Part shown: positions 10,040 to 61,090 of the stretch, in pieces | Layout: every line of letters starts with the position of its first letter | Numbering within the stretch: the first letter of the stretch is position 1 | Source: Chiloscyllium plagiosum | Lineage: Eukaryota | Reading direction: 5' to 3' | Assembly (NCBI RefSeq): GCF_004010195.1 | Contig: NC_057749.1 | Location: forward strand, 12,677,180 to 12,741,179 | DNA length: 64,000 nucleotides | Translations under genes and position numbers: made by a program | Notes under the pieces: generated by a model | The model's input: the letters and a program-made list of their open reading frames with translations, nothing else | Databases searched by the model: none | Told to the model about the DNA's origin: nothing

Positions 10040-10455
10040 TACTGTTGTGGTTCTGTTCGCCGAGCTGGGAATTTGTGTTGCAGACATTTCGCCCCCTGTC
10101 TAGGTGACATCCTCAGTGCTTGGGAGCCTCCTTTGAAGCGCTTCTGTGATCTTTCCTCCGGCATTTGTAGTGATTTGAATCTGCCGCTTCCAGTTGTCAG
10201 TTCCAGCTGTCCGTTGCAGTGGTTGGTATATTGGGTCCAGGTCGATGTGCTTATTGATTGAATCGGTGGATGAGTACCATGCCTCTAGGAATTCCCTGGC
10301 TGTTCTCTGTTTGGCTTGTCCTATAATAGTAGTGTTGTCCCAGTCAAATTCATGTTGCTTGTCATCTGCGTGTGAGACTACTAAGGATAGCTGGTCGTGT
10401 CGTTTCGTGGCTAGTTGGTGTTCATGAACATGGATGTTCATTCGCAAACTTTGAA
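10040..10455 (-). mobile_element. Penelope-like element family B, 3' fragment (GIY-YIG C-terminus)
   Basis: HEHQLATKRHDQLSLV...FDWDNTTIIGQAKQRTAREFLEAW; near-identical to 42930-43307 and 56990-57487. Confidence 0.88.
10080..10119 (-). ncRNA. Minimal type-I hammerhead ribozyme motif (PLE family B), sense to ARIH1 intron 5
   Basis: GCA-CTGAGGA-T-GTCACCT-AGAC-AGGGGGC-GAAAT-GTC-TGC: CUGANGA and GAAA intact, stem I GCA/UGC, GUC cleavage triplet; stem III palindrome ACGU has changed to AUGU. Confidence 0.72.
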
Positions 10456-13400: not shown

Positions 13401-13523
13401 GCAGTACAGAAAACTTTACATCATTTCACTTCCCTGAAATTCTAGCCATGCACCCCCAGAGTTAGATTCTTTTCCTGAGCAGTATGTAAATGGAAATAGT
13501 TATCAGGTATTAAAAAAACTCAC

Positions 13524-13579
13524 ATAACTGTGTTGTCATCGACGAGGATATCACAGCCGTGAGCTGGGCATGATATAGT
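13524..13579 (-). CDS. ARIH1: ARIH1 coding exon 5, 56 nt
   Basis: [18 protein letters not shown](M); acceptor ttttcttgcag|ACT, donor AT|GTGAGT; preceded by a 98-nt intron. Confidence 0.97.
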
Positions 13580-13677
13580 CTGCAAGAAAAAAAATCAGAA
13601 CAAATTATGCTAATGCAGTCCGACTCAAAACGTTCGGTTCCAGTGAAAAATGAGACAAATATGACACAAATACGTAC

Positions 13678-13770
13678 CTGCCCCATACCTTCTTCTATGA
13701 TCTTTGTAGTTAAGTATTCATTCCAGCACTGCATACAGAATTTGTGACCACACTCTAAGCCTGTGAAGTA
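13678..13770 (-). CDS. ARIH1: ARIH1 coding exon 4 (RING1), 93 nt
   Basis: [31 protein letters not shown]; acceptor ttgcag|TAC, donor CAG|GTACGT. Confidence 0.97.
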
Positions 13771-15859
13771 CTGCAACAAGCAAGAAATTTTAAAAAAAGA
13801 TTGCCAGTGTAATTATTTGATGCAATTAGCATCCAAGAATATTTCAACAATATTAAATCACATGCAAAACTTTAACACAACATAGCAAAATACAACATGT
13901 GATGTCTTGTGCAGATGCACAGGCTGCGAAGTCCTACTCGCTGTTATTTATTTTTCTGTTTTGCCCTACTGAATCCATTAGACATTAGTGAATAAATCTG
14001 AAGCTAAGACATCAAGATCTAACCTGTCAGGTTCTCGAAATCCATGCAAGTCAATAGCAAGGGATTTTTATTTATATATTTCATTGCGTGAGACTCAATA
14101 GGGCAGTGGCAAAACTCCCACTGCCCTGCAGGCACAGCAGCACAAAAACCAGCATGAAGCGCATCATTTTGCCCCTTGCACAACAAAATGATAAGACCTC
14201 AAGCCTGTCCCCAGAGGCAGAGGCACCCCTCCAACAATTCCATAGAGCACAGCCATACAAAGAGGAAACACAGACACTATGAAATATGAAGGCTTAATGA
14301 TTGCTCAAATTCATCATTATATTTAATATTTAAACAAAACGTTTGTTTCTCATAATCATGTACCAACTTCAACAATATTTCCTCATTCCAGGAACTCTGC
14401 GTTCAACAGCCCTACTGTTCAGCGTATATTACCTTTCCACTATTTCACATGTTGTAAACTACACCCAGCATTGACCTGCCCATTTCAAACTATTTATGGC
14501 CCCTTGAAATGAATTGCATTTATCTTCAGTTTACAAAGTCTTTAAGCAGCAAACTTTGACATAATGACTCTATCCTAACCAGTTACATAAATGGAAACTG
14601 AAGTGGTTCCAGAATCATACTTTGGCAGACTCAGCCACATTCAACTATTAAGAAATCACCTATTTACTTTATTTTGCCAGTTATGTCTAACTAGATGATT
14701 ATATCCCCATTTATGTCCTGGGCCTCTACATACCAGCACCGAAGGACATCTATTCTCTATGGAATGCAGCAACTCAAGAAGGTAGGTTACAACTACCTGC
14801 TCAAGGGAAATTAGGAATGGACAATAAATGCAGGCCTTGCCAGTTTTGTTCATGCCCCAACACAAAAAAAAACAATACATAAAACTAAAGTTTTATGACT
14901 AATGAATTAGAAATTGATGAAATCATGAGCAGCATCTGCCACCGCCCCCCCCCCCCCCCACCCTCCCACCCCCCAGGTCTTTCTCAGGTATTCAATAATC
15001 TCCTTCTGTTCAGGATTATGCAGTCTGACTACAGTGAAGGAAAGAATAAATGGCCAGCAGCTTCCTGGCTTATAGCTTTCTTGTTTAGAAAAGACAGTTA
15101 TAAGAACTTTTTTATCTTATGAACTAACCTATTTTCCCCCCAAAGTCCTTACAAGGTGGATGCCTCAGAAGACAACTGTCCATTAGGGTTGAACCAGTGC
15201 TAATTCAAAGGCTATTCAACTGTTACCTTAGCATCAATCTCAAACAGGGGACATTTAGAATCAGATTAACCCTTGGGCAGTGCAGTGGTCCTTCTGAAGA
15301 TAAGGGAATTCAAGTCTTCTGGGAGAAAAAGAGACAGAAAAGGACCTTAATCAACTTTTTTGCTTGGTGGATCACAATATTGAGAATTACGGAGTGACTA
15401 TCCCAAATGCAAAACAACTGTAGACTTCACATTGGCACAAAGTTGTTGCAAAGATCTTTTATAAATTTTCCAATCTGGAATAGTACCTGTTATGTAACAA
15501 TTGAATCTCCAGAAGAAAACACATTCAGTAAAATTGATCCATCTGTACCTCACTGACACATTTGGACAACTGACACTGCTGGTTTTCAATTTATTATGGT
15601 ATCAGAAATCTGGGAAATAGCAATTTGGTGCATGCTGGCTATTGCACATTCATATCTCGTTTAGTGGACTTCATAAATATTATTAGGTCAGTCCCATTAA
15701 TCAAACTTAACCATTATTAAAAGTGAAATGATATTTTAAAAACATAAAATGCGTTGGTGAGAGGATTAAACAGCAGCTAATAGCTGCCCCGAATGCTAAG
15801 TTAATACAGCACCAACTATATTAAGTTCAGCCAAGTCTGCCCATCTAATTGGTCTACTT

Positions 15860-42690: not shown

Positions 42691-42929
42691 AGAATACACC
42701 AGACCCCGATCCTGTACTGTGGTTAGAATATTAATGCAGCCAATGCAGGTGAATTTCATTCTAGCGATGAGGACACACATTGTTTGTTCACGTTAGGCAT
42801 TTCAGATGACACTGTGCGAGGTTGCAGCAACAAAAACAATGAATAGTACAGCGCAGGAACAGGTCCTTCAGCCCACCAAGCCTGCTCTGACATGACACCT
42901 TTCTAAAGTAAGGGACTTTTGCCTCTACT

Positions 42930-43307
42930 CAGTCCACACACGCAGACAACAAGCAACATGAATTCGACTGGGACAACACTACTATCACAGGGCAAGCAAG
43001 ACAGAGAACAGCCAGGGAATTCCTAGAGGCATGGCATTCATCCACAAACTCCATCAACAAACACATCGACCTGGACCCAATATACCAACCACTACAGCGG
43101 ACAGCTGAAACTGACAACGGAAGCGGCAGGGACAGACCACTATAAACACCGGAGGAAACATCAAAGAAGCGCTTCGCAGGAGGCTCCCAAGCACTGAAGA
43201 TGTCGCCTAGCCAGGGGACGAAACGTTTGCAACAAAAACTTCCAGCTTGGCGAACAGAACCACAGCAACGAGCACCCGAGCTACAAATCTTCGCACAAAC
43301 TTTGAAC
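42930..43307 (+). mobile_element. Penelope-like element family B, 3' fragment
   Basis: THADNKQHEFDWDNTTITGQARQRTAREFLEAWHS; ends CACAAACTTTGAAC like the copy at 57487. Confidence 0.88.
43191..43230 (+). ncRNA. Minimal type-I hammerhead ribozyme motif (PLE family B), core intact
   Basis: GCA-CTGAAGA-T-GTCGCCT-AGCC-AGGGGAC-GAAAC-GTT-TGC: CUGANGA, stem II with 6 of 7 pairs, GAAA, loopless ACGU stem III, GUU triplet, stem I GCA/UGC. Confidence 0.78.
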
Positions 43308-46010
43308 TTTACCACCATCCTGTCTCCTACCTTCAAACCAATTTTGTATCCAATTGGCTAGATCCCCCTGGAACCGACATGATCTAACCTTACTAACCAG
43401 TCTACCACACTAACCACACTTACTAACCAGTCTAACCCTTTCAAACACTATGCTGAATTTCATACAGACAACATCTACCACTCTGCCTTCATCAGTGTTC
43501 TTTGTTACCTCTTCTTTCTCTTGTACTGCCCATTTTGTCAAAGGGTGCAAATTGTCTGGAATGCTTTGTGCATTACAACGTAGCTGCACTTCACAAGGAC
43601 ATTACTGTTTGCAAAACACTTTGGGATATGCCAAGGTCACAAACATTCTATAGAAATACACGTCTTTCTTTTCAACCAATCTATCTCAATCTGCTGGTTC
43701 TAATGAACAGAGATGTAGGTGTGGGAAATAGAGGGAGGTCATAACACCAGAACCTTGAAAAAACCCTCTTTTAGTGAGAAACAAATGACCATGAAGATAC
43801 ATGAATGGGGAAAGCTTTCCATAACCTTTTAACCATGAGACAGAGTTAAAATGGTTGATTAAGCTGAATGCATTGTTTGCTAAGGTGTTCAGTGAGTGCC
43901 ACTTTCTTCTTTCACCAAGAAATAAGAAAGCAGCCCACTCTAAACAGTGTTAATGGATTTTCCAGTTATCTCAACAGAATTGGGGAGGTACTTCCATGTG
44001 ATATCCAAAAGATGGAACTTCCAACAGGATTATCTGGTCAAGTTCTGTAGTAGGATGTGATTCAAAGACAAGTGTGTTAATACGGAGTCAAAAGTGTCTG
44101 ACATCTGATACAGAAACCAAAACACACCAGTAAGCAGATCACAAAGCAAAAGCTAATTTAGCATTTCAAAGCTAGAAAATTCTCCAGGGAACCGCTTGAG
44201 CTATAAAACTTGGCTGTATGTGGCAAGAAATCTCATGCAATAATACAGACAAGAGCCACCACCATCCCTTACCACAGCTCAACCCCTCCCCCAAAATTAA
44301 TTGGGTCTTTGGAACAGCATCCTTTTTAATGCCCAAATGGAATTTCAGACGTGAACTCAGATATAAACACCTTACAGCCCAGATAATATACAATTACACA
44401 GGAGAATAAATGAGTAGAAGGGAATCATCATGCCAGGAGGTTCAGAATATGTTGTAAACCTTAACTGCAAATCTGTCAGTAACTACTAATAGGATTATGG
44501 CAAGTGACTTTTCCCCTGCTGTAGTGTGGTCCAATTCATCAGACAAGATGGAAGATTAGAGCAACTGTTATTTTCTAATGTGAAGTAGCACATGTATTCA
44601 CATGTGTATAGCCATTACTGAAATTCAAATGTCCTGCTCTTTCCAGCATCTTCTTCTAATCATTCTTTTCTGTAATCACCTCACCAGATGCAGTTTAAGT
44701 TTGGAAAGATATAAAGTATACATTCTATCTACAGGTCACCAGTATGAAGAAAGAGTCTCATTAGAGAGTACATAATAATGCAAAAACTCATCAATAGCTA
44801 TAATACTTTTTACTGTATAGTGTTTATAAATAACAAGTGAAAGTGATCTCTGAAGGCAGCAAGTGTAATTCTACCATTATTATACTTTTACCCAATCTAG
44901 TTCCTGACCCATGGAAAACTGCACCAGCAAATAAACATTAAACATAAACATTAAAAATTGACATTGGCTGAATGAGCTAAAAGGTAAAAGCAACAACGTT
45001 ACTCCACAGATTTCAATGAACATTTAAACAGGGACCTTCCACAATTTTAATGATTGTAAGGCCACTGCCATCAAATAAACCACTCAAACATATTGTAGGA
45101 AGCTTGGCTGCTGTGAGTAGTGGCTGTTAATATGATTCCGATGCAAGCATTCCCACCCAGCAGAAATTTCAGGCTCTGTTGGGCAAAACAAGCTGTTGCC
45201 ACCACAGCTACCTCTGGGAGACAGTGGCAAGATAGTGAACAGTGAGCAGTCAAGGATTGAACCACAGCCAGAATCCTGGCTGCACACTCACCATCGAATC
45301 AAGCTCAAAAGTAATGACGGGCAGGCTTAGCATCATCTCACTCAAACAAAAGGAAATATTATCCATTCTGATCCTGGTCAGCACAGCATTTGGCCTGGAT
45401 AGAAGGCAGTCATTCACCCTGCTCAGAACCCACGTTGCTTTTGCAATGCTGTTCAGGTTAAACCTAATGTGTTCCAGCCAGAAAGGTTTATTTTGAGCAG
45501 CTGCTAATTTTGAAATGGAAAAATCCAAGGTTCAAACCTTCTAAAAGTTATGAATGGGAAAAAATTGTCCAGACTAAGCTCGAGCTTGCTGTTTAGAGGA
45601 GACTCAATTCTTTACAAAAGGGCATAAATTACTTAAGGAAATAAATACAAATAAACATTCAAAATTGTAATATTTAATTTACTCCTTCAAAATGCTCCTC
45701 AGCAATCAGACTATAACCCAACACTTTATATCAAAATCCTCCTTCCAAATAAAAATCAAGTTTACAATTACAGAGCCAAGAGAACTTTCAGTAGGCTGTG
45801 TGTAAACCCTGGTCCACCAAGCCAAGTCACTGCTGGCCACGCCCTTTAACATAGGCACACCCATCCATACCAGGATGGGTACATGAATAGGTTTTTAAGA
45901 GGGATATGGGCCAAACACTAGCAAATGGGACTGGATGAGATCGGGATATCTGGTCAGCGCAGACAAATTGGACCAAAGGGTCTAGTTCTGTGCAATATGA
46001 CTTTATATAG

Positions 46011-55916: not shown

Positions 55917-56698
55917 CCAATGATATAGCCAGGAAAAGGATCGAGGATATAAAAAGTGACTTCAGGGAGTTAGAATGGAAGCTGCAGAGCAGGACGAACA
56001 AAGTAGTGTTCTCGGGTTTACTACCAGTGCCACGAGATAGCGAGGTGAGGAACAGGGAGCGGGCGCAGCTTAACACGTGGCTGCGCAGCTAGTGTAGGAG
56101 GGAGGGCTTCAGATATGTAGATAATTGGGATGCCTTCTGGGGAAGGTGGGACCTGTACATGAAGGACGGGTTGCACCTGAACTGGAAGGGGACCAATGTC
56201 TTGGGTAGAAGGTTTGCTCGAGTGGTTCAGGAGGGTTTAAACTAGTATGGCAAGGGGGTGGGAACCTGAGCTATATACCGGTGGTGAGAGTTGATGGAGA
56301 TGAGGCAATAGCAAGAGGTAGCGCAGCCAGTGTGAAGGAATTTCCTGGGAAAGAACCAAGGGATCGGTTGAAGTGTGTTTGCTTTAAGGCAAGGAGTAGA
56401 ATAAAAGTGATGAGCTTAGAGCATGGATCAGTACCTGGTGCTATGATGTGGCCATAACAGAGATGTGGGTTTCTCAGGGGCAGGAATGGTTGCTGGATGT
56501 CCAGGGTTTAGAACATTTAAAAAGAATGGGGGGGGGGGGGGGAAGAGGAGGGGGTGTAGCACTGCTAATCAGAGAGGGTATCACAGCTACAGAAGTTACC
56601 ATTGTCGAGGAGGGTGTGCCGACTGAGTCAATACGGGTGGAAATTAGGAGCAGTAAGGGAGCAGTCACCTCATTAGGGATTTACTACAGGCCTCCCAA

Positions 56699-57487
56699 AA
56701 GAAGTTGCATCAAGACACTGTTCAAAAGGGCTACAACACACTGCAGTACACCAGAACTGCAAAAAGAGGAAGAAGAACACCTATACAATGTATTCGGCAA
56801 AAACGGAAACGCACGCAATTTCATCAACAGATGCCTAAGGGAAAGACAACGGAACGAGGACATGCCGCAACCCAAAGGACTAGCCACACTATCATATATC
56901 AAGAGCATTTCCGAACTGACAGCCAGACTACTGCGACCACTAGGACTNNNNNNNNNNNNNNNNNNNNNNNNNNNNNNNNNNNNNNATGTAGTGTACAAAA
57001 TCCCATGCAAGGACTGCACAAAACACTACATAGGACAAACAGGAAGACAGCTAACGATCCGCATCCATGAACACCAACTAGCCGCGAAACGACATGACCA
57101 GCTATCCTTAGTAGCCACACAGGCAGATGACAAGCAACATGAGTTCGACTGGGACAACACTACTATTATAGGACAAGCCAAACAGAGAACAGCCAGGGAA
57201 TTCCTAGAGGCATGGCACTCATCCACAGATTCAATCAATAAGCACATCAACCTGGACCCAGTATACCGACCACTGCAACGGATAGCTGGAAATGACAACT
57301 GGAAGCGGCAGATTCAAACCACTACAAATGGCGGAGGGAAGATCACAGCAGCGCTTCACAGGAGGCTCACAAGCACTGAGGATGTCACCTAGACGGGACA
57401 AAACGTCTGCAACACAAATTCCCAGCTCGGCGAACAGAACCACAACAACGAGCACCCGAGCTACAAATCTTCTCACAAACTTTGAAC
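56699..57487 (+). mobile_element. Penelope-like element family B (RT C-terminus, GIY-YIG, 3' repeat) nested in the CR1 APE domain
   Basis: KRSCIKTLFKRATTHC, VVYKIPCKDCTKHYIGQTGRQLTIRIHEH (GIY-YIG); host YRPP|NSSREIE resumes at about 57488; contains a 39-N gap (56948-56986). Confidence 0.9.
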
Positions 57488-59802
57488 CCCCAATAGCAGC
57501 AGGGAGATTGAAGAAAGCATATGTTGGCAGATTTTGGAAAAGTGTGAATGTAGCAGGGTTGTTATGATGGGTGACTTTAACTTTCCCAATATTGATTGGA
57601 ACCTCCTTCGAGCAGATGGTTTGGAAGGAGCTGCTTTTGTAAGGTGTGTTCAGGAGGGTTTCCCAACTCAGTACGTTGACAGGTCGACGAGGGGAGAGGC
57701 AATGAGCCGGGGCAGATGTCAGATCTTGCGGTGGGAGAGCATTTTGGTGATAGTGACCACAACTGTCTCACATTCTACATAGCTATGGAGAAGGAGAGAA
57801 GCAGGCACAATGGGAGGATACTTAATTGGGGAAAAGGAAACTATGATGCTATCAGACGTGAGTTAGAAAGCAATGACTGGGAGCAATTGTTCCATGGAAA
57901 GGGCACTAGAGACATGTGGAGACTGTTTAAGGAACAGTTGTTGCAAGTGATGCATAAATGTGTTCCTCTGAGACATGCAAGAAGGAGTAAGATAAAGGAA
58001 CCTTGGATGACGAGAGCGGAGGAGCTTCTCGTCAAAAGAAAGAAAGCAGCTTACGTAGGGTGGAGAAAGCAAGGGTCTTGCTCAGCTCTAGAGGATTAGA
58101 GCAGGTGAGGAAGGAGCTCAAAAATGGTCTGAGAGCCAGGAGGGGGTACGATAAAGGCTTGGCAGGAAGGATTAGGGAGAATCCAAAGGCATTTTACACG
58201 TATGTGAGGAATAAGAGAATGATCAAAGAGAGAGTAGGGCCGATCAGGGATAGCATAGGGAACTTGTGTCTAGAGTCTGAGGAGGTAGGGGAATCCCTAA
58301 ATGAGTTTTTTCCTTCTGTCTTTACTAAATAAAAGGACCTTATAGTGAATGAAACCATTGAGGAGCAGGTAAGCATGCTGGAACGGATAGAGATTGAGGA
58401 AGCTGATGTGCTGAAAAGTTTGACAAACATTAAGATTGACAAGTCGCCAGGGCCAGACCAGATTGGTCCTCGGCTGCTTTGGGAAGCGAGAAATGTGATT
58501 GCTTCGCCACTTGCGAAGGTCTTTGCATCCTTGCCCTCCACCGGAGTTGTACCTGAGGACTGGAGAGAGGCAAATGTAATTCCTCTCTTCAAGAAAGGAA
58601 ATAGGGAAATTCCCAGCAATTACAGACCAGTCAGTCTCACGTCTGTCGTCTGCAAGGTGTTAGAAAGGATTCTGAGGGATAGGATTTATGACCATCTGGA
58701 AGAGCATGGCTTGATTAAATGCAGTCAGCAAGGCTTTGTGAGGGGCAGGTCATGCCTTACACTCTTATTGAGTTCTTTGAGGATATTACTAGACAAGTTG
58801 ATGAGGGTCGAGCGGTGGATGTGGTGTATATGGACTTCAGCAAGGCATTTGATAAGATTCCCCATGGTAGGCTCATTCAGAAGGTCAGGAGGAATGGGAT
58901 ACAGGGAAATTTAACTGTCTGGATACAGAAAGTGGTAGTGGAAGGAAAGTATTCTGCCTGGAAGTCAGTGGTGAGTGGTGTTCCACAGGGGTCTGTTCTT
59001 GGGCCTCTACTCTTTGTAATTTTTATTAATGACTTGGATGAGGGGATTGAAGGATGGGTTAGCAAGTTTGCAGACGACACAAAGGTTGGAGGTGTAGTTG
59101 ACAGTATAGAGGACTGTTGTCGGCTGCAGCATGACATTGACAGGATGCAGAGATGGGCTGAGAGGTGGCAGATGGAGTTCAACCTGGATAAATACGAATT
59201 GATGCATTTTGGAAGGTCGAACTTGAAAGTTGAGTACAGGATTAAAGACAGGATTCTTGGCAGTGTGGAGAAACAGCGGGATCTTGGTGTGCAGGTACAT
59301 AGATCCCTTAAAATTGCACCCAAGTGGACAGGGTTGTTAAGAAAGCATATGATGTTTTGGCTTTCATTCACAGGGGGATTGAGTTTAAGAGCCGTGAGAT
59401 CTTGTTGTAGCTCTATAAAACTTTGGTTAGACCGCACTTGGAATACTGTGTCCAGTTCTGGTTGCCCTATTATAGGAAAGATGTGGATGCTTTGGACAGG
59501 GTTCAGAGGAGGTTTACCAGGATGCTGCCTGGAAGGGGGCTTATCTTATGAAGAGAGGTTGACTGAGCTCTGACTTTTTTCATTGGAAAAAAGGAAGAGA
59601 AGGGACCTAATTGAGGTATACAAGATAATGAGAGGCATAGATAGAGTTGATAGCCATTTAAGAGACTGCTGGACATGCATATGGTCACAGAAATTTGAGG
59701 GTTCGTACATTAGGTTTACCTTACATGAGGATCAATGGTTAGCACAACATCGTGGGCTGAAGGGCCTGTTCTGTGCTGTACTGTTCTTTGTTCTATGTTC
59801 TA

Positions 59803-61090
59803 TCCTATTCACGTGCTCTGCCGACTTCAGAGATCTGTGAATAATTGCCCCAAGATCCCTCTGTTCCTCTAAGCTACTACATGTCCTGCCATTCATTAAG
59901 TTTTCCCTTATCTTGTTCCTTCTTTAAAACTGCATCACCTCATACTTATCAAAGTTAAATATCATCTGCCACTAGTGTGTCCATATGACCAACCCATTTA
60001 TATTTTCCTGTAACCTACACACATCTTCGCTATTAGCCAATCTACTAATCATGGTGTTGTCTGCAAATTTGCTTAACATTCCCTCCATATTTTCATTTAT
60101 AACATTGATTAGTCTAAAGTAAACTCCATCTGCCATTCCTTGACCTACTGTCCCTGATGATCAAGATCCCATTGTACTCGTAAACAAACTTCTTCACTGT
60201 CCGCCAAATTACCAATTTTGGTGCCATCTACAAACTTACTAACCATGCCTCCTATATTCTCAATCAAGTTGTTTCTGTAAATGACAAATACCAGCAGCAC
60301 ATCACTGGTCACAGACCTCCAGTCTGAACAATGATCCTCTACTACTATTCTGTCTCCTACCATTAAGTCAATTTTGTATCCAATTGGCTCTCTCTCCCTG
60401 GATCCCATGTAATCTAATCTTACCCTCTACCACTGTTCACCTATCACCTCCTCACCACTCCACCTCTCTCCCCACCCAAATCCTCCCCCACCCTCATCCC
60501 CCTCCCCCACCTTATCTGCAGCTCCCCTTACCCTCACTCCCAATCCTGATGGAGGGTTATACTCAAAACGTTAACTTCTCCACCTCCTGATGCTGCCTGA
60601 CTTGCTATATTCTTCCAGTCTTTTGCTTGTCTATTTAATCTTGGTAACCAGTCTTCCATGTGGAACCTGTCGAAGGCTTTGCTGAAGTCCATGTCGACAA
60701 AGTATATGTTCTGCCTTCATCTATCTTCTTGGTCAAATTCCCATGCACAAAACCATACTGACCGTCCCTGATCAGTCCTTGCCTTTCCAAATGCTTGTAG
60801 ATGCTGTCTCTCAGGATCTCCACCAACAACTTACTCACCGCAGACATTAGGCTCACTGGCCTGTAGTTCCCTGGCTTTTCCTTGCAGTCTTCCTTTATTA
60901 ATGGCATAACATTAGCCACCCTCCAGTCTTCCAGCACGTCATCTGTGGTTATCAATGATGTAAAATATCTCCACTAAGGACACCTCAATTTCATCCCTAG
61001 CTTCCCACAATGTCCTTGATACACTTGATCACATCCCAGTGATTTATCTACCTTTATGTGTTTTAAGACCTCCAGCATCTCTTTTATAAT
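59803..61090 (-). mobile_element. Decayed CR1 fragments, with a PLE-like 3' piece at about 60430-60635
   Basis: EDWRVANVMPL..PGNYRPVSL and VSKFVDGTKIG; decayed hammerhead-like CTGATGGAGGGTTATACTCAAAACGTT at about 60546. Confidence 0.75.

Follow-up and report, generated by a model that had tools for sequence, protein, structure and literature searches.

Metazoan Penelope-like elements (PLEs) carry minimal hammerhead ribozymes (min-HHRs) that are located in the pseudo-long terminal repeat (pLTR) of the element and combine an unpaired base between positions 9 and 10.1, a G10.1-C11.1 pair, a helix II of 7-8 bp, a short helix I and palindromic positions 15.2-16.2 (Cervera and de la Pena 2014, PMC4209133). 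The hosts listed in that study include fishes, coelacanth, amphibians and reptiles. On its own, a PLE min-HHR is unable to close helix III; its presumed active form is a double hammerhead within a tandem transcript (PMC4209133, PMC6765202). A canonical endonuclease-positive PLE, as outlined in PMC8557442, has a reverse transcriptase (RT), a C-terminal GIY-YIG endonuclease (EN), pLTR tandems, an inverted truncated partner, a tail of 30-40 bp and a DKG motif; in the same publication, the role of the ribozyme in endonuclease-bearing PLEs is still called unclear. Here, we describe a motif of this class at positions 43191-43230 of a 64-kb stretch of DNA from the shark Chiloscyllium plagiosum (64,000 nt of contig NC_057749.1, referred to as the window throughout). 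According to our analysis, which included searches against the 3.56-Gb genome, this motif is very probably a genuine, sequence-intact PLE min-HHR that resides in a solitary, 5'-truncated and frameshifted element copy.

Read directly from the forward strand, the motif is GCA CTGAAGA T GTCGCCT AGCC AGGGGAC GAAA CGT T TGC (for the assignment of the individual segments see Table 1). An earlier note on this DNA had listed the sequence, the core nucleotides, a 3-bp stem I, a hairpin stem II, one extra nucleotide and the ACGU palindrome, all of which are confirmed here; its general statement that PLEs carry minimal type-I hammerheads whose palindromic stem III favours dimers agrees with PMC4209133. 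The seven stacked positions of helix II comprise six pairs plus one G.G mismatch (43205/43216), and the helix opens with G10.1-C11.1 (G43202-C43219). We used a strict descriptor consisting of CUGANGA, 0-1 extra nt, G10.1-C11.1, a helix II of 4 bp or more with no more than one mismatch, GAAA, a palindromic helix III, an H17 that is not G and a helix I of at least 3 bp. On both strands of the window, 43191-43230 was the only match to this descriptor, and there was no match in 300 dinucleotide-preserving shuffles of the window. A relaxed version with one defect allowed added only the copy at 10080-10119 within the window, and a second hammerhead family was found in the 64 kb by neither the strict nor the one-defect descriptor. 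For the isolated 40-mer, the minimum-free-energy fold is the hammerhead secondary structure.

The motif belongs to a large family. A 34-nt family pattern, which leaves N7, 10.4, one loop base and H17 free, had 11,827 genomic matches (5,804 + 6,023 on the two strands), compared with 0 + 0 for the reversed pattern. For an alignment, 69 tail places were extracted, four of them not spanning the motif were dropped, and the remaining 65 were aligned with the three window copies. The 40-nt motif is fully intact in 16 of 21 copies of a young subfamily and in 15 of 44 copies of an older one, and the extra base at 43201 is kept in 20 of the 21 young and in all 44 old copies. The majority forms of the two subfamilies differ at 4 of the 40 motif positions, namely 43198 (N7, U/G), 43205 (10.4), 43211 (loop II) and 43227 (H17, U/C). 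All four differences fall on positions where a hammerhead is permissive and none on a core or paired position; 10.4 faces a G as a mismatch in both majority forms. If 9 of the 40 positions count as free, the chance of all four falling on free positions is about 0.001, a value based on a classification made after seeing the data. At N7, the window copy has neither the U of the young majority nor the G of the old subfamily, and shares its A with locus L006. The commonest inactivating changes in the old copies are G12>A (13/44, partly a query bias, the window query itself carrying G12>A), C15.2>U and G16.2>A, all of which are CpG transitions (equivalents of 43220 and 43224-43225). With two CpGs in its core, the motif decays faster than its length suggests.

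The tail (42934-43330) also occurs, at 90-99% likeness, in contigs of runs that carry the labels of three other organisms, with differing mixes at N7 and H17; the variation of these contigs inside the motif affects the permissive places named above and, in addition, C11.1 at a CpG. The family, or close relatives of it, is therefore common to several related species. The shark genome holds, in addition, a second minimal-hammerhead family of the form CUGAWGA-A-GGGC-(4-5 nt)-GCCC-GAAACGUC. The pattern used here keeps the layout and excludes the helix II of the first family; almost all of its 110,605 matches (19 for the reversed control) belong to this second family, which is about 10x more abundant than the family carrying the motif at 43191-43230. 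Since the GGGC/GCCC family keeps the layout, the latter is common to families with unrelated helix II in the same genome. In one of the listed second-family copies, helix II has a compensatory change from G-C to A-U.

The element that carries the motif could be assigned with the help of longer genomic copies. A search with the 221 nt around the motif gave at least 1,403 first-look genomic candidates, and the 40 copies that were scored are 96-100% identical; for the older subfamily, which includes the two other window copies, 4,266 candidates were found at 93-95% identity. The genomic copies are 5'-truncated at scattered positions, most of those sampled being 200-440 nt long. At the 3' side, all 34 of the ends listed show ...CTTTGAAC (window position 43307), followed by unrelated flanks without poly(A). 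An inverted head-to-head partner is common, the outer end of which corresponds to 43268 and is thus 39 nt short of the normal end. Among the first 100 motif places listed, 30 motifs form 15 (-,+) head-to-head pairs less than 1.1 kb apart, and there is no (+,-) pair.

Two longer copies that are collinear with the window tail (L005 and L026) contain one frame with GTPMGSPIS, YADD/YIDD, a linker and then a nuclease. Pfam RVT_1 matched L026:1187-2440 with 36.1 bits (cut-off 29.6). C-terminal of the RT, we found VVYKIPCKDCTKHYIGQTGR...RIHEH...REFLEAWH, read by eye as a GIY-YIG nuclease with a CxxC...HxH insertion and probably of the PLE type (CCHH motif). The Pfam GIY-YIG model scored this region below its cut-off (14.3 bits, E = 0.052). 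Applied to the whole genome, the same model yielded a single marginal match and was of no help in finding PLE nucleases, and a sequence search of the PDB with the RT-EN fragment returned weak matches to group II intron and retron RTs only (best E = 0.0031). In the N-terminal region, a DKG motif of the form ILPADKG(K/R)MTVILD is present (ILPADKGKMTVILD in L024, ILPADKGRMTVILD in L077), and both copies also contain RFYGLPKVHKP...LRPIVS. The motif region lies 80 nt from the 3' end of the insertion, and the same region precedes the element body in the tandem copies L024 and L028, i.e. it occupies the pLTR position. Since the RT with a putative C-terminal GIY-YIG, the pLTR-type tandems, the inverted partner and the 30-40 bp tail together fit the description in PMC8557442, the carrier can be classified from its sequence as a canonical endonuclease-positive PLE of a young and very abundant family. 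The assignment to Penelope made in the earlier note is thereby upheld (RT followed by a putative GIY-YIG, DKG, inverted partners, a 39-nt tail and no poly(A)). Its placement of the motif at the 3' end of the element holds as far as the tail region is concerned; the motif is, more precisely, 80 nt inside the end and overlaps the end of the open reading frame (ORF).

This overlap involves two frames. The RT-EN frame ends with ...LPSTEDVA at a stop codon inside loop II, and, where helix II begins, A9, the extra U and G10.1 form an ATG that opens a frame. The locus L024 contains a truncated copy joined directly to the 5' part of the next unit (...CTTTGAAC followed by ACTTACGGGCGAG...), and the same unit junction sequence was found in L028, L063 and L077. 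The ATG frame of L024 runs without a stop across the unit junction and through the DKG N-terminal region to the end of the locus. In tandem copies, the ATG opens the ORF of the next unit, as in the Poseidon element PAc of Anolis carolinensis. The predicted cut is located 25 nt after the ATG, and the ORF is presumably slightly longer than one unit, so that an RNA cut at the upstream ribozyme would lose its start codon.

Immediately beyond the usual 3' end, the start of the next unit follows (ACTTACGGG...; L024:2560-2575, L028:2640-2650, L034). L034 carries 9 nt of the next unit before its flank, and L028 joins the tail to the body 8 nt differently. Both end variants fit an RNA longer than one unit on which the internal site where reverse transcription begins varies slightly.

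We propose that in the source elements, arranged as partial tandems, the motif would straddle the ORF boundaries (TAG in loop II, AUG from A9-U-G10.1). Because helix III is represented by the palindrome ACGU without a loop, one motif would be unable to close it, and the cut after GUU would need two motifs that pair ACGU/ACGU as a double hammerhead, either in a tandem transcript or in trans. Since the energy of the ACGU/ACGU duplex is only -1.7 kcal/mol, help from a protein or from the tandem context would be needed; by analogy with the Anolis Poseidon element, the element's own protein probably assists cleavage. The cleaved RNA would start with 5'-UGCAAC. A cDNA running off such a 5'-UGCA end would carry a self-complementary TGCA at its 3' tip and could prime on a second cDNA of this kind, for which reason recurrent head-to-head junctions would arise exactly at the cut. 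We infer dimeric cleavage in vivo and a possible role of the ribozyme in separating template RNA from mRNA.

Junctions in the genome were inspected for such footprints. Junction-type places were counted if the 23 nt downstream of the cut were intact and positions -5 to -3 all differed from the element. There were 136 such places at the cut and 88 and 32 at control breakpoints further downstream (+6 and +32, respectively), the control counts being rough baselines only and partly made up of indel artefacts. By eye, small-indel artefacts (e.g. GAATC, CGTTC, TGCAC) accounted for about 40%, half and 60% of the listed rows at the cut, +6 and +32, respectively. The excess at the cut is real but rough, as the counts are polluted by indels. 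Of the first 100 rows at the cut, 24 represent one recurrent junction, in which the tail overlaps its reverse complement by TGCA. A two-arm pattern allowing 0-10 free bases between the arms identified 21 genomic sites with no more than 5 nt between the cut and the end of either arm; 18 of these 21 have precisely TGCA as their centre, a count that stands without a per-position baseline for other palindromes of the element, and the remaining three have centres of 5, 7 and 7 nt. In each of the 18 junctions, the nucleotide directly following the predicted cut is the last one of either arm, and the 4-nt palindrome is common to the two. Two further loci are informative: L077 starts at GCAAC and L063 at GTT-TGCAAC beside an inverted arm, both within 3 nt of the cut, and these are the two loci whose copies reach the 5' region without an upstream hammerhead. 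Taken at the level of genomic sequence, the junction footprints at the predicted cut suggest cleavage in vivo, and we give cleavage of the family motif in vivo an even chance. The view of the earlier note that the shark family processes its RNA like other PLEs is made more likely by these footprints.

RNA data were also considered. None of the indexed runs recorded as RNA contains the tail. Among raw single-cell poly(A) reads with the same species label, 326 reads were collected at 90% likeness from about 2% of the run. Read depth is flat across 43227/43228 (86.9 then 86.1), these reads show no pile of starts or ends at the cut, and 76% of the placed read material continues into sequence unlike the element, as would result from read-through of dispersed copies within host transcripts. 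A single-cell poly(A) library is poorly suited to detecting 5'-OH ends; for the cells sampled, the reads are weak evidence against an abundance of cleaved RNA, and they have no bearing on the germline.

Besides the poly(A) reads and the roughness and missing baseline of the junction counts, several other observations weigh against the proposal of an active ribozyme. PLE min-HHRs cleave poorly in vitro (PMC4209133). For PAc, PMC11167929 reports that cleavage needs the element protein, that the ribozyme is dispensable for insertion in vitro and that no reads ended at the cut site. As to structure, helix I of the shark motif has just 3 bp, helix II contains a G.G (or A.G) mismatch, and the palindrome pairs as weakly as stated above. 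The stability of the 40-mer is not unusual in comparison with shuffled sequences (z = -0.55; 45 of 200 shuffles have an equally stable or more stable fold), and in the fold of a 91-nt context other pairings replace helix I. The search with hammerhead models proposed in the earlier note failed: those of Rfam 15 (Hammerhead_1, _3, _II, HH9, HH10) gave no window match at the gathering score, and no hammerhead match was obtained at E<=10 on 42900-43500. Since these models give no match, the motif is detectable by a motif descriptor only, as with our strict one. Three weak Rfam matches (MIAT exon 5 regions, mir-5911) were far under thresholds and were rejected as chance. The earlier note had also named a core conserved above flanking sequence and covariation of stems I and II as checks. 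With 4/40 differences in the motif vs 4/45 in the flanks, the motif as a whole is no better conserved between the subfamilies than its surroundings, and there was no compensatory pair change among the 65 aligned genomic copies of the family. Coding in two frames would alone be able to hold the sequence of this region.

These points bear on the strongest rival explanation, namely that a hammerhead-like sequence was kept or inherited as coding sequence with its stop and start codons, without any ribozyme action, and that the TGCA junctions arose by template switching at the palindrome. We regard this as unlikely. Overlap with two reading frames, the level of conservation and lack of covariation within the family, the weak pairing of the helices and the missing pile of read ends would all be accounted for, and the ribozyme-independent insertion of PAc in vitro as well as PLE clades that lack a hammerhead and proliferate well (Craig et al. 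2021) are in line with it. Against it stands the joint presence of about 13 invariant hammerhead positions, the G10.1-C11.1 pair, the extra base and the palindrome in both subfamilies, with every subfamily difference on a permissive position. If the RT simply stalled at the helix II hairpin, the cDNAs would stop about 8 nt upstream of the cut, whereas 18 of 21 junctions lie on the exact nucleotide predicted. Moreover, the homologous motif of PAc cleaves when its protein is present (PMC11167929).

Far less probable is that the 374-nt copy, rather than being a piece of an autonomous PLE, represents a hammerhead retroposon that is short and non-autonomous (a non-LTR retrozyme or an element resembling short interspersed elements). 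The short length of most sampled copies would fit, as would the derivation of vertebrate retrozymes from PLE pLTRs, reported in a 2026 preprint (10.64898/2026.07.22.740005), but the longer RT-EN copies contain the fragment in collinear form as their C-terminal EN coding region and stop, the 5' ends are scattered, as in 5' truncation, and instead of a short tandem array the first 100 listed motif places contain only two pairs on the same strand, with spacings of 1.2 and 1.6 kb. A hammerhead-like sequence arising by chance in repetitive DNA, for which the shortness of the motif and the 53 CTGANGA boxes in the window could be cited, is refuted by the empty shuffles and by 11,827 exact family copies against none of the reversed pattern, and the motif has a fixed place in the PLE.

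A tentative extension of the PLE min-HHR reading, which we put forward as a possibility with the odds somewhat against it, is a wrap-around ORF that exceeds the unit by about 9 nt, with stop and start 6 nt apart, such that cleavage would sort messenger from RT template and the fold-back junctions would record cleavage in the germline, the cDNAs that run off at 5'-UGCA priming themselves by means of this palindrome. If true, a unit-length RNA cut at both ribozymes would be without an AUG of its own, and only uncut transcripts of more than unit length or a re-ligated circle could be translated.

As to the motif in the window itself, the copy harbouring it starts at 42934 and ends with ...CTTTGAAC at 43307, with unique flanks beyond. 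Compared with most copies, it lacks 1 nt near 43117 (a C is inserted behind 43117 in 42 of 62 reads), and its reading frame is broken upstream of about 43117. The nearest same-strand copy is at least 14 kb away, and dead. As a lone motif in a dead, truncated fragment without a nearby same-strand partner, 43191-43230 is itself most likely inert. The earlier note had cited homologous copies at 10080-10119 and 57373-57410; homology was verified (tails 85-88% identical), but neither copy is intact. At 10080-10119 (-), ACGU has changed to AUGU (C15.2>U, a CpG transition) and A11.2>G is found in addition; at 57373-57410 (+), GAAA has become AAAA (G12>A, a CpG transition) and 2 nt are deleted in the 3' strand of helix II. 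All three window copies are dead-on-arrival fragments, and only that at 42934-43307 retains an intact motif. The coordinates of all features are compiled in Table 1.

Table 1. Coordinates of the hammerhead motif, its segments, the overlapping codons and the three PLE copies in the window
Feature	Position	Strand	Remarks
Minimal type-I hammerhead motif, descriptor-intact	43191-43230	+	predicted cut 43227/43228
Helix I, 3 bp GCA/UGC	43191-93 with 43228-30	+	A43190 opposite A43231, no extension possible
Core box CUGAAGA (CUGANGA)	43194-43200	+	N7 = A
Extra unpaired U between A9 and G10.1	43201	+	listed PLE min-HHR feature (PMC4209133)
Helix II hairpin GUCGCCU/AGGGGAC, loop AGCC	43202-08 with 43213-19	+	present in minimum-free-energy fold
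GAAA box	43220-23	+	
Loopless palindrome ACGU in place of helix III (A15.1-C-G-U16.1)	43223-43226	+	
H17 = U, cleavage triplet GUU	43227	+	predicted cut 43227/43228
Stop codon TAG of RT-EN ORF, inside loop II	43208-10	+	frame end ...LPSTEDVA
ATG = A9 + extra U + G10.1, start of helix II	43200-02	+	frame open to element end
5'-truncated young-subfamily PLE copy, about 374 nt	42934-43307	+	last EN-coding part, hammerhead, tail; genomic copies 96-99% identical
39-nt tail	43269-43307	+	in main copies; absent from inverted partners, which end at 43268 equivalent
Older-subfamily PLE copy without 39-nt tail	10043-10426	-	hammerhead 10080-10119 decayed
Older-subfamily PLE copy (RT C-terminus, linker, EN, tail)	56696-57487	+	hammerhead 57373-57410 dead

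A Pfam scan of the 58 window ORFs of at least 100 aa detected no PLE body besides the copy at 56696-57487. This copy is adjoined by a separate repeat of about 790 bp (55917-56704) with 16,220 first-look candidates, the top copies of which are 90-94% identical. Residues 17-75 of the frame 56400-57392 match Exo_endo_phos (AP endonuclease) weakly, and the repeat is probably the 5' part of a long interspersed nuclear element (LINE). ORF fragments with RVT_1 matches were found at 58333-59573 (+) and 60638-60973 (-), with E = 5e-21, 1e-06 and 2e-04; their lack of collinearity with the PLE copies suggests that they are remnants of LINEs. A host-gene exon may be represented by the open frame of 100 aa at 13513-13812 (-), which has RING-finger matches below threshold (zf-C3HC4 family, best E = 1.7e-04).

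The class to which the motif belongs is already known: publications on PLE minimal hammerheads go back to 2014 and cover fishes, amphibians and reptiles, and this instance adds little to them. The one publication retrieved by a literature search on Penelope hammerheads in sharks was a review that uses 'shark' for a shape, a result that does not show shark PLE hammerheads to be unpublished. Annotation based on Rfam misses these motifs, though the genome holds more than 10^4 of one family and more than 10^5 of another. The young, uniform family offers a clean case of the layout with the start codon in the ribozyme, plus the stop of the previous unit in the same motif. In addition, insertion junctions that coincide with the predicted cut provide a cheap, purely genomic test of cleavage in vivo, which is applicable to many genomes.

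Compared with the canonical type-I hammerhead (Rfam Hammerhead_1), the shark motif has the same catalytic core and cut after GUH, but is without the helix III hairpin and the loop-loop tertiary contacts. Non-LTR retrozymes (PMC7229834; 10.64898/2026.07.22.740005) likewise have type-I hammerheads, which need dimers in vertebrates, and are related to PLE pLTRs; they co-occur with PLEs, including in one chondrichthyan surveyed. They are described there as short non-coding tandem repeats that give circular RNAs, whereas the shark copies are 5'-truncated pieces of coding RT-EN sequence.

The experimentally active hammerhead of PAc (PMC11167929) has the same layout with the start codon in the ribozyme; its cut is located about 26 nt downstream of the start codon, compared with 25 nt here, and its insertions also end at an internal site, giving a 'tail'. 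The activity of PAc has been measured. In the shark family, the preceding ORF also ends in the same motif (TAG, loop II). With the metazoan class of PMC4209133 the shark family shares the type-I topology, CUGANGA/GAAA, the extra base, G10.1-C11.1, a helix II of seven positions, the short helix I and the palindrome, and furthermore the thousands of dispersed copies, the predominance of truncated elements and the frequent close pairs on opposite strands. The family and its host are absent from the examples named in the main text of that study. Helix I has 3 bp here, compared with 4-5 bp there, or 2 bp in D. virilis; helix II of the shark family contains a conserved purine-purine mismatch, and the family is very uniform (96-99%), in contrast to the highly variable families of PMC4209133.

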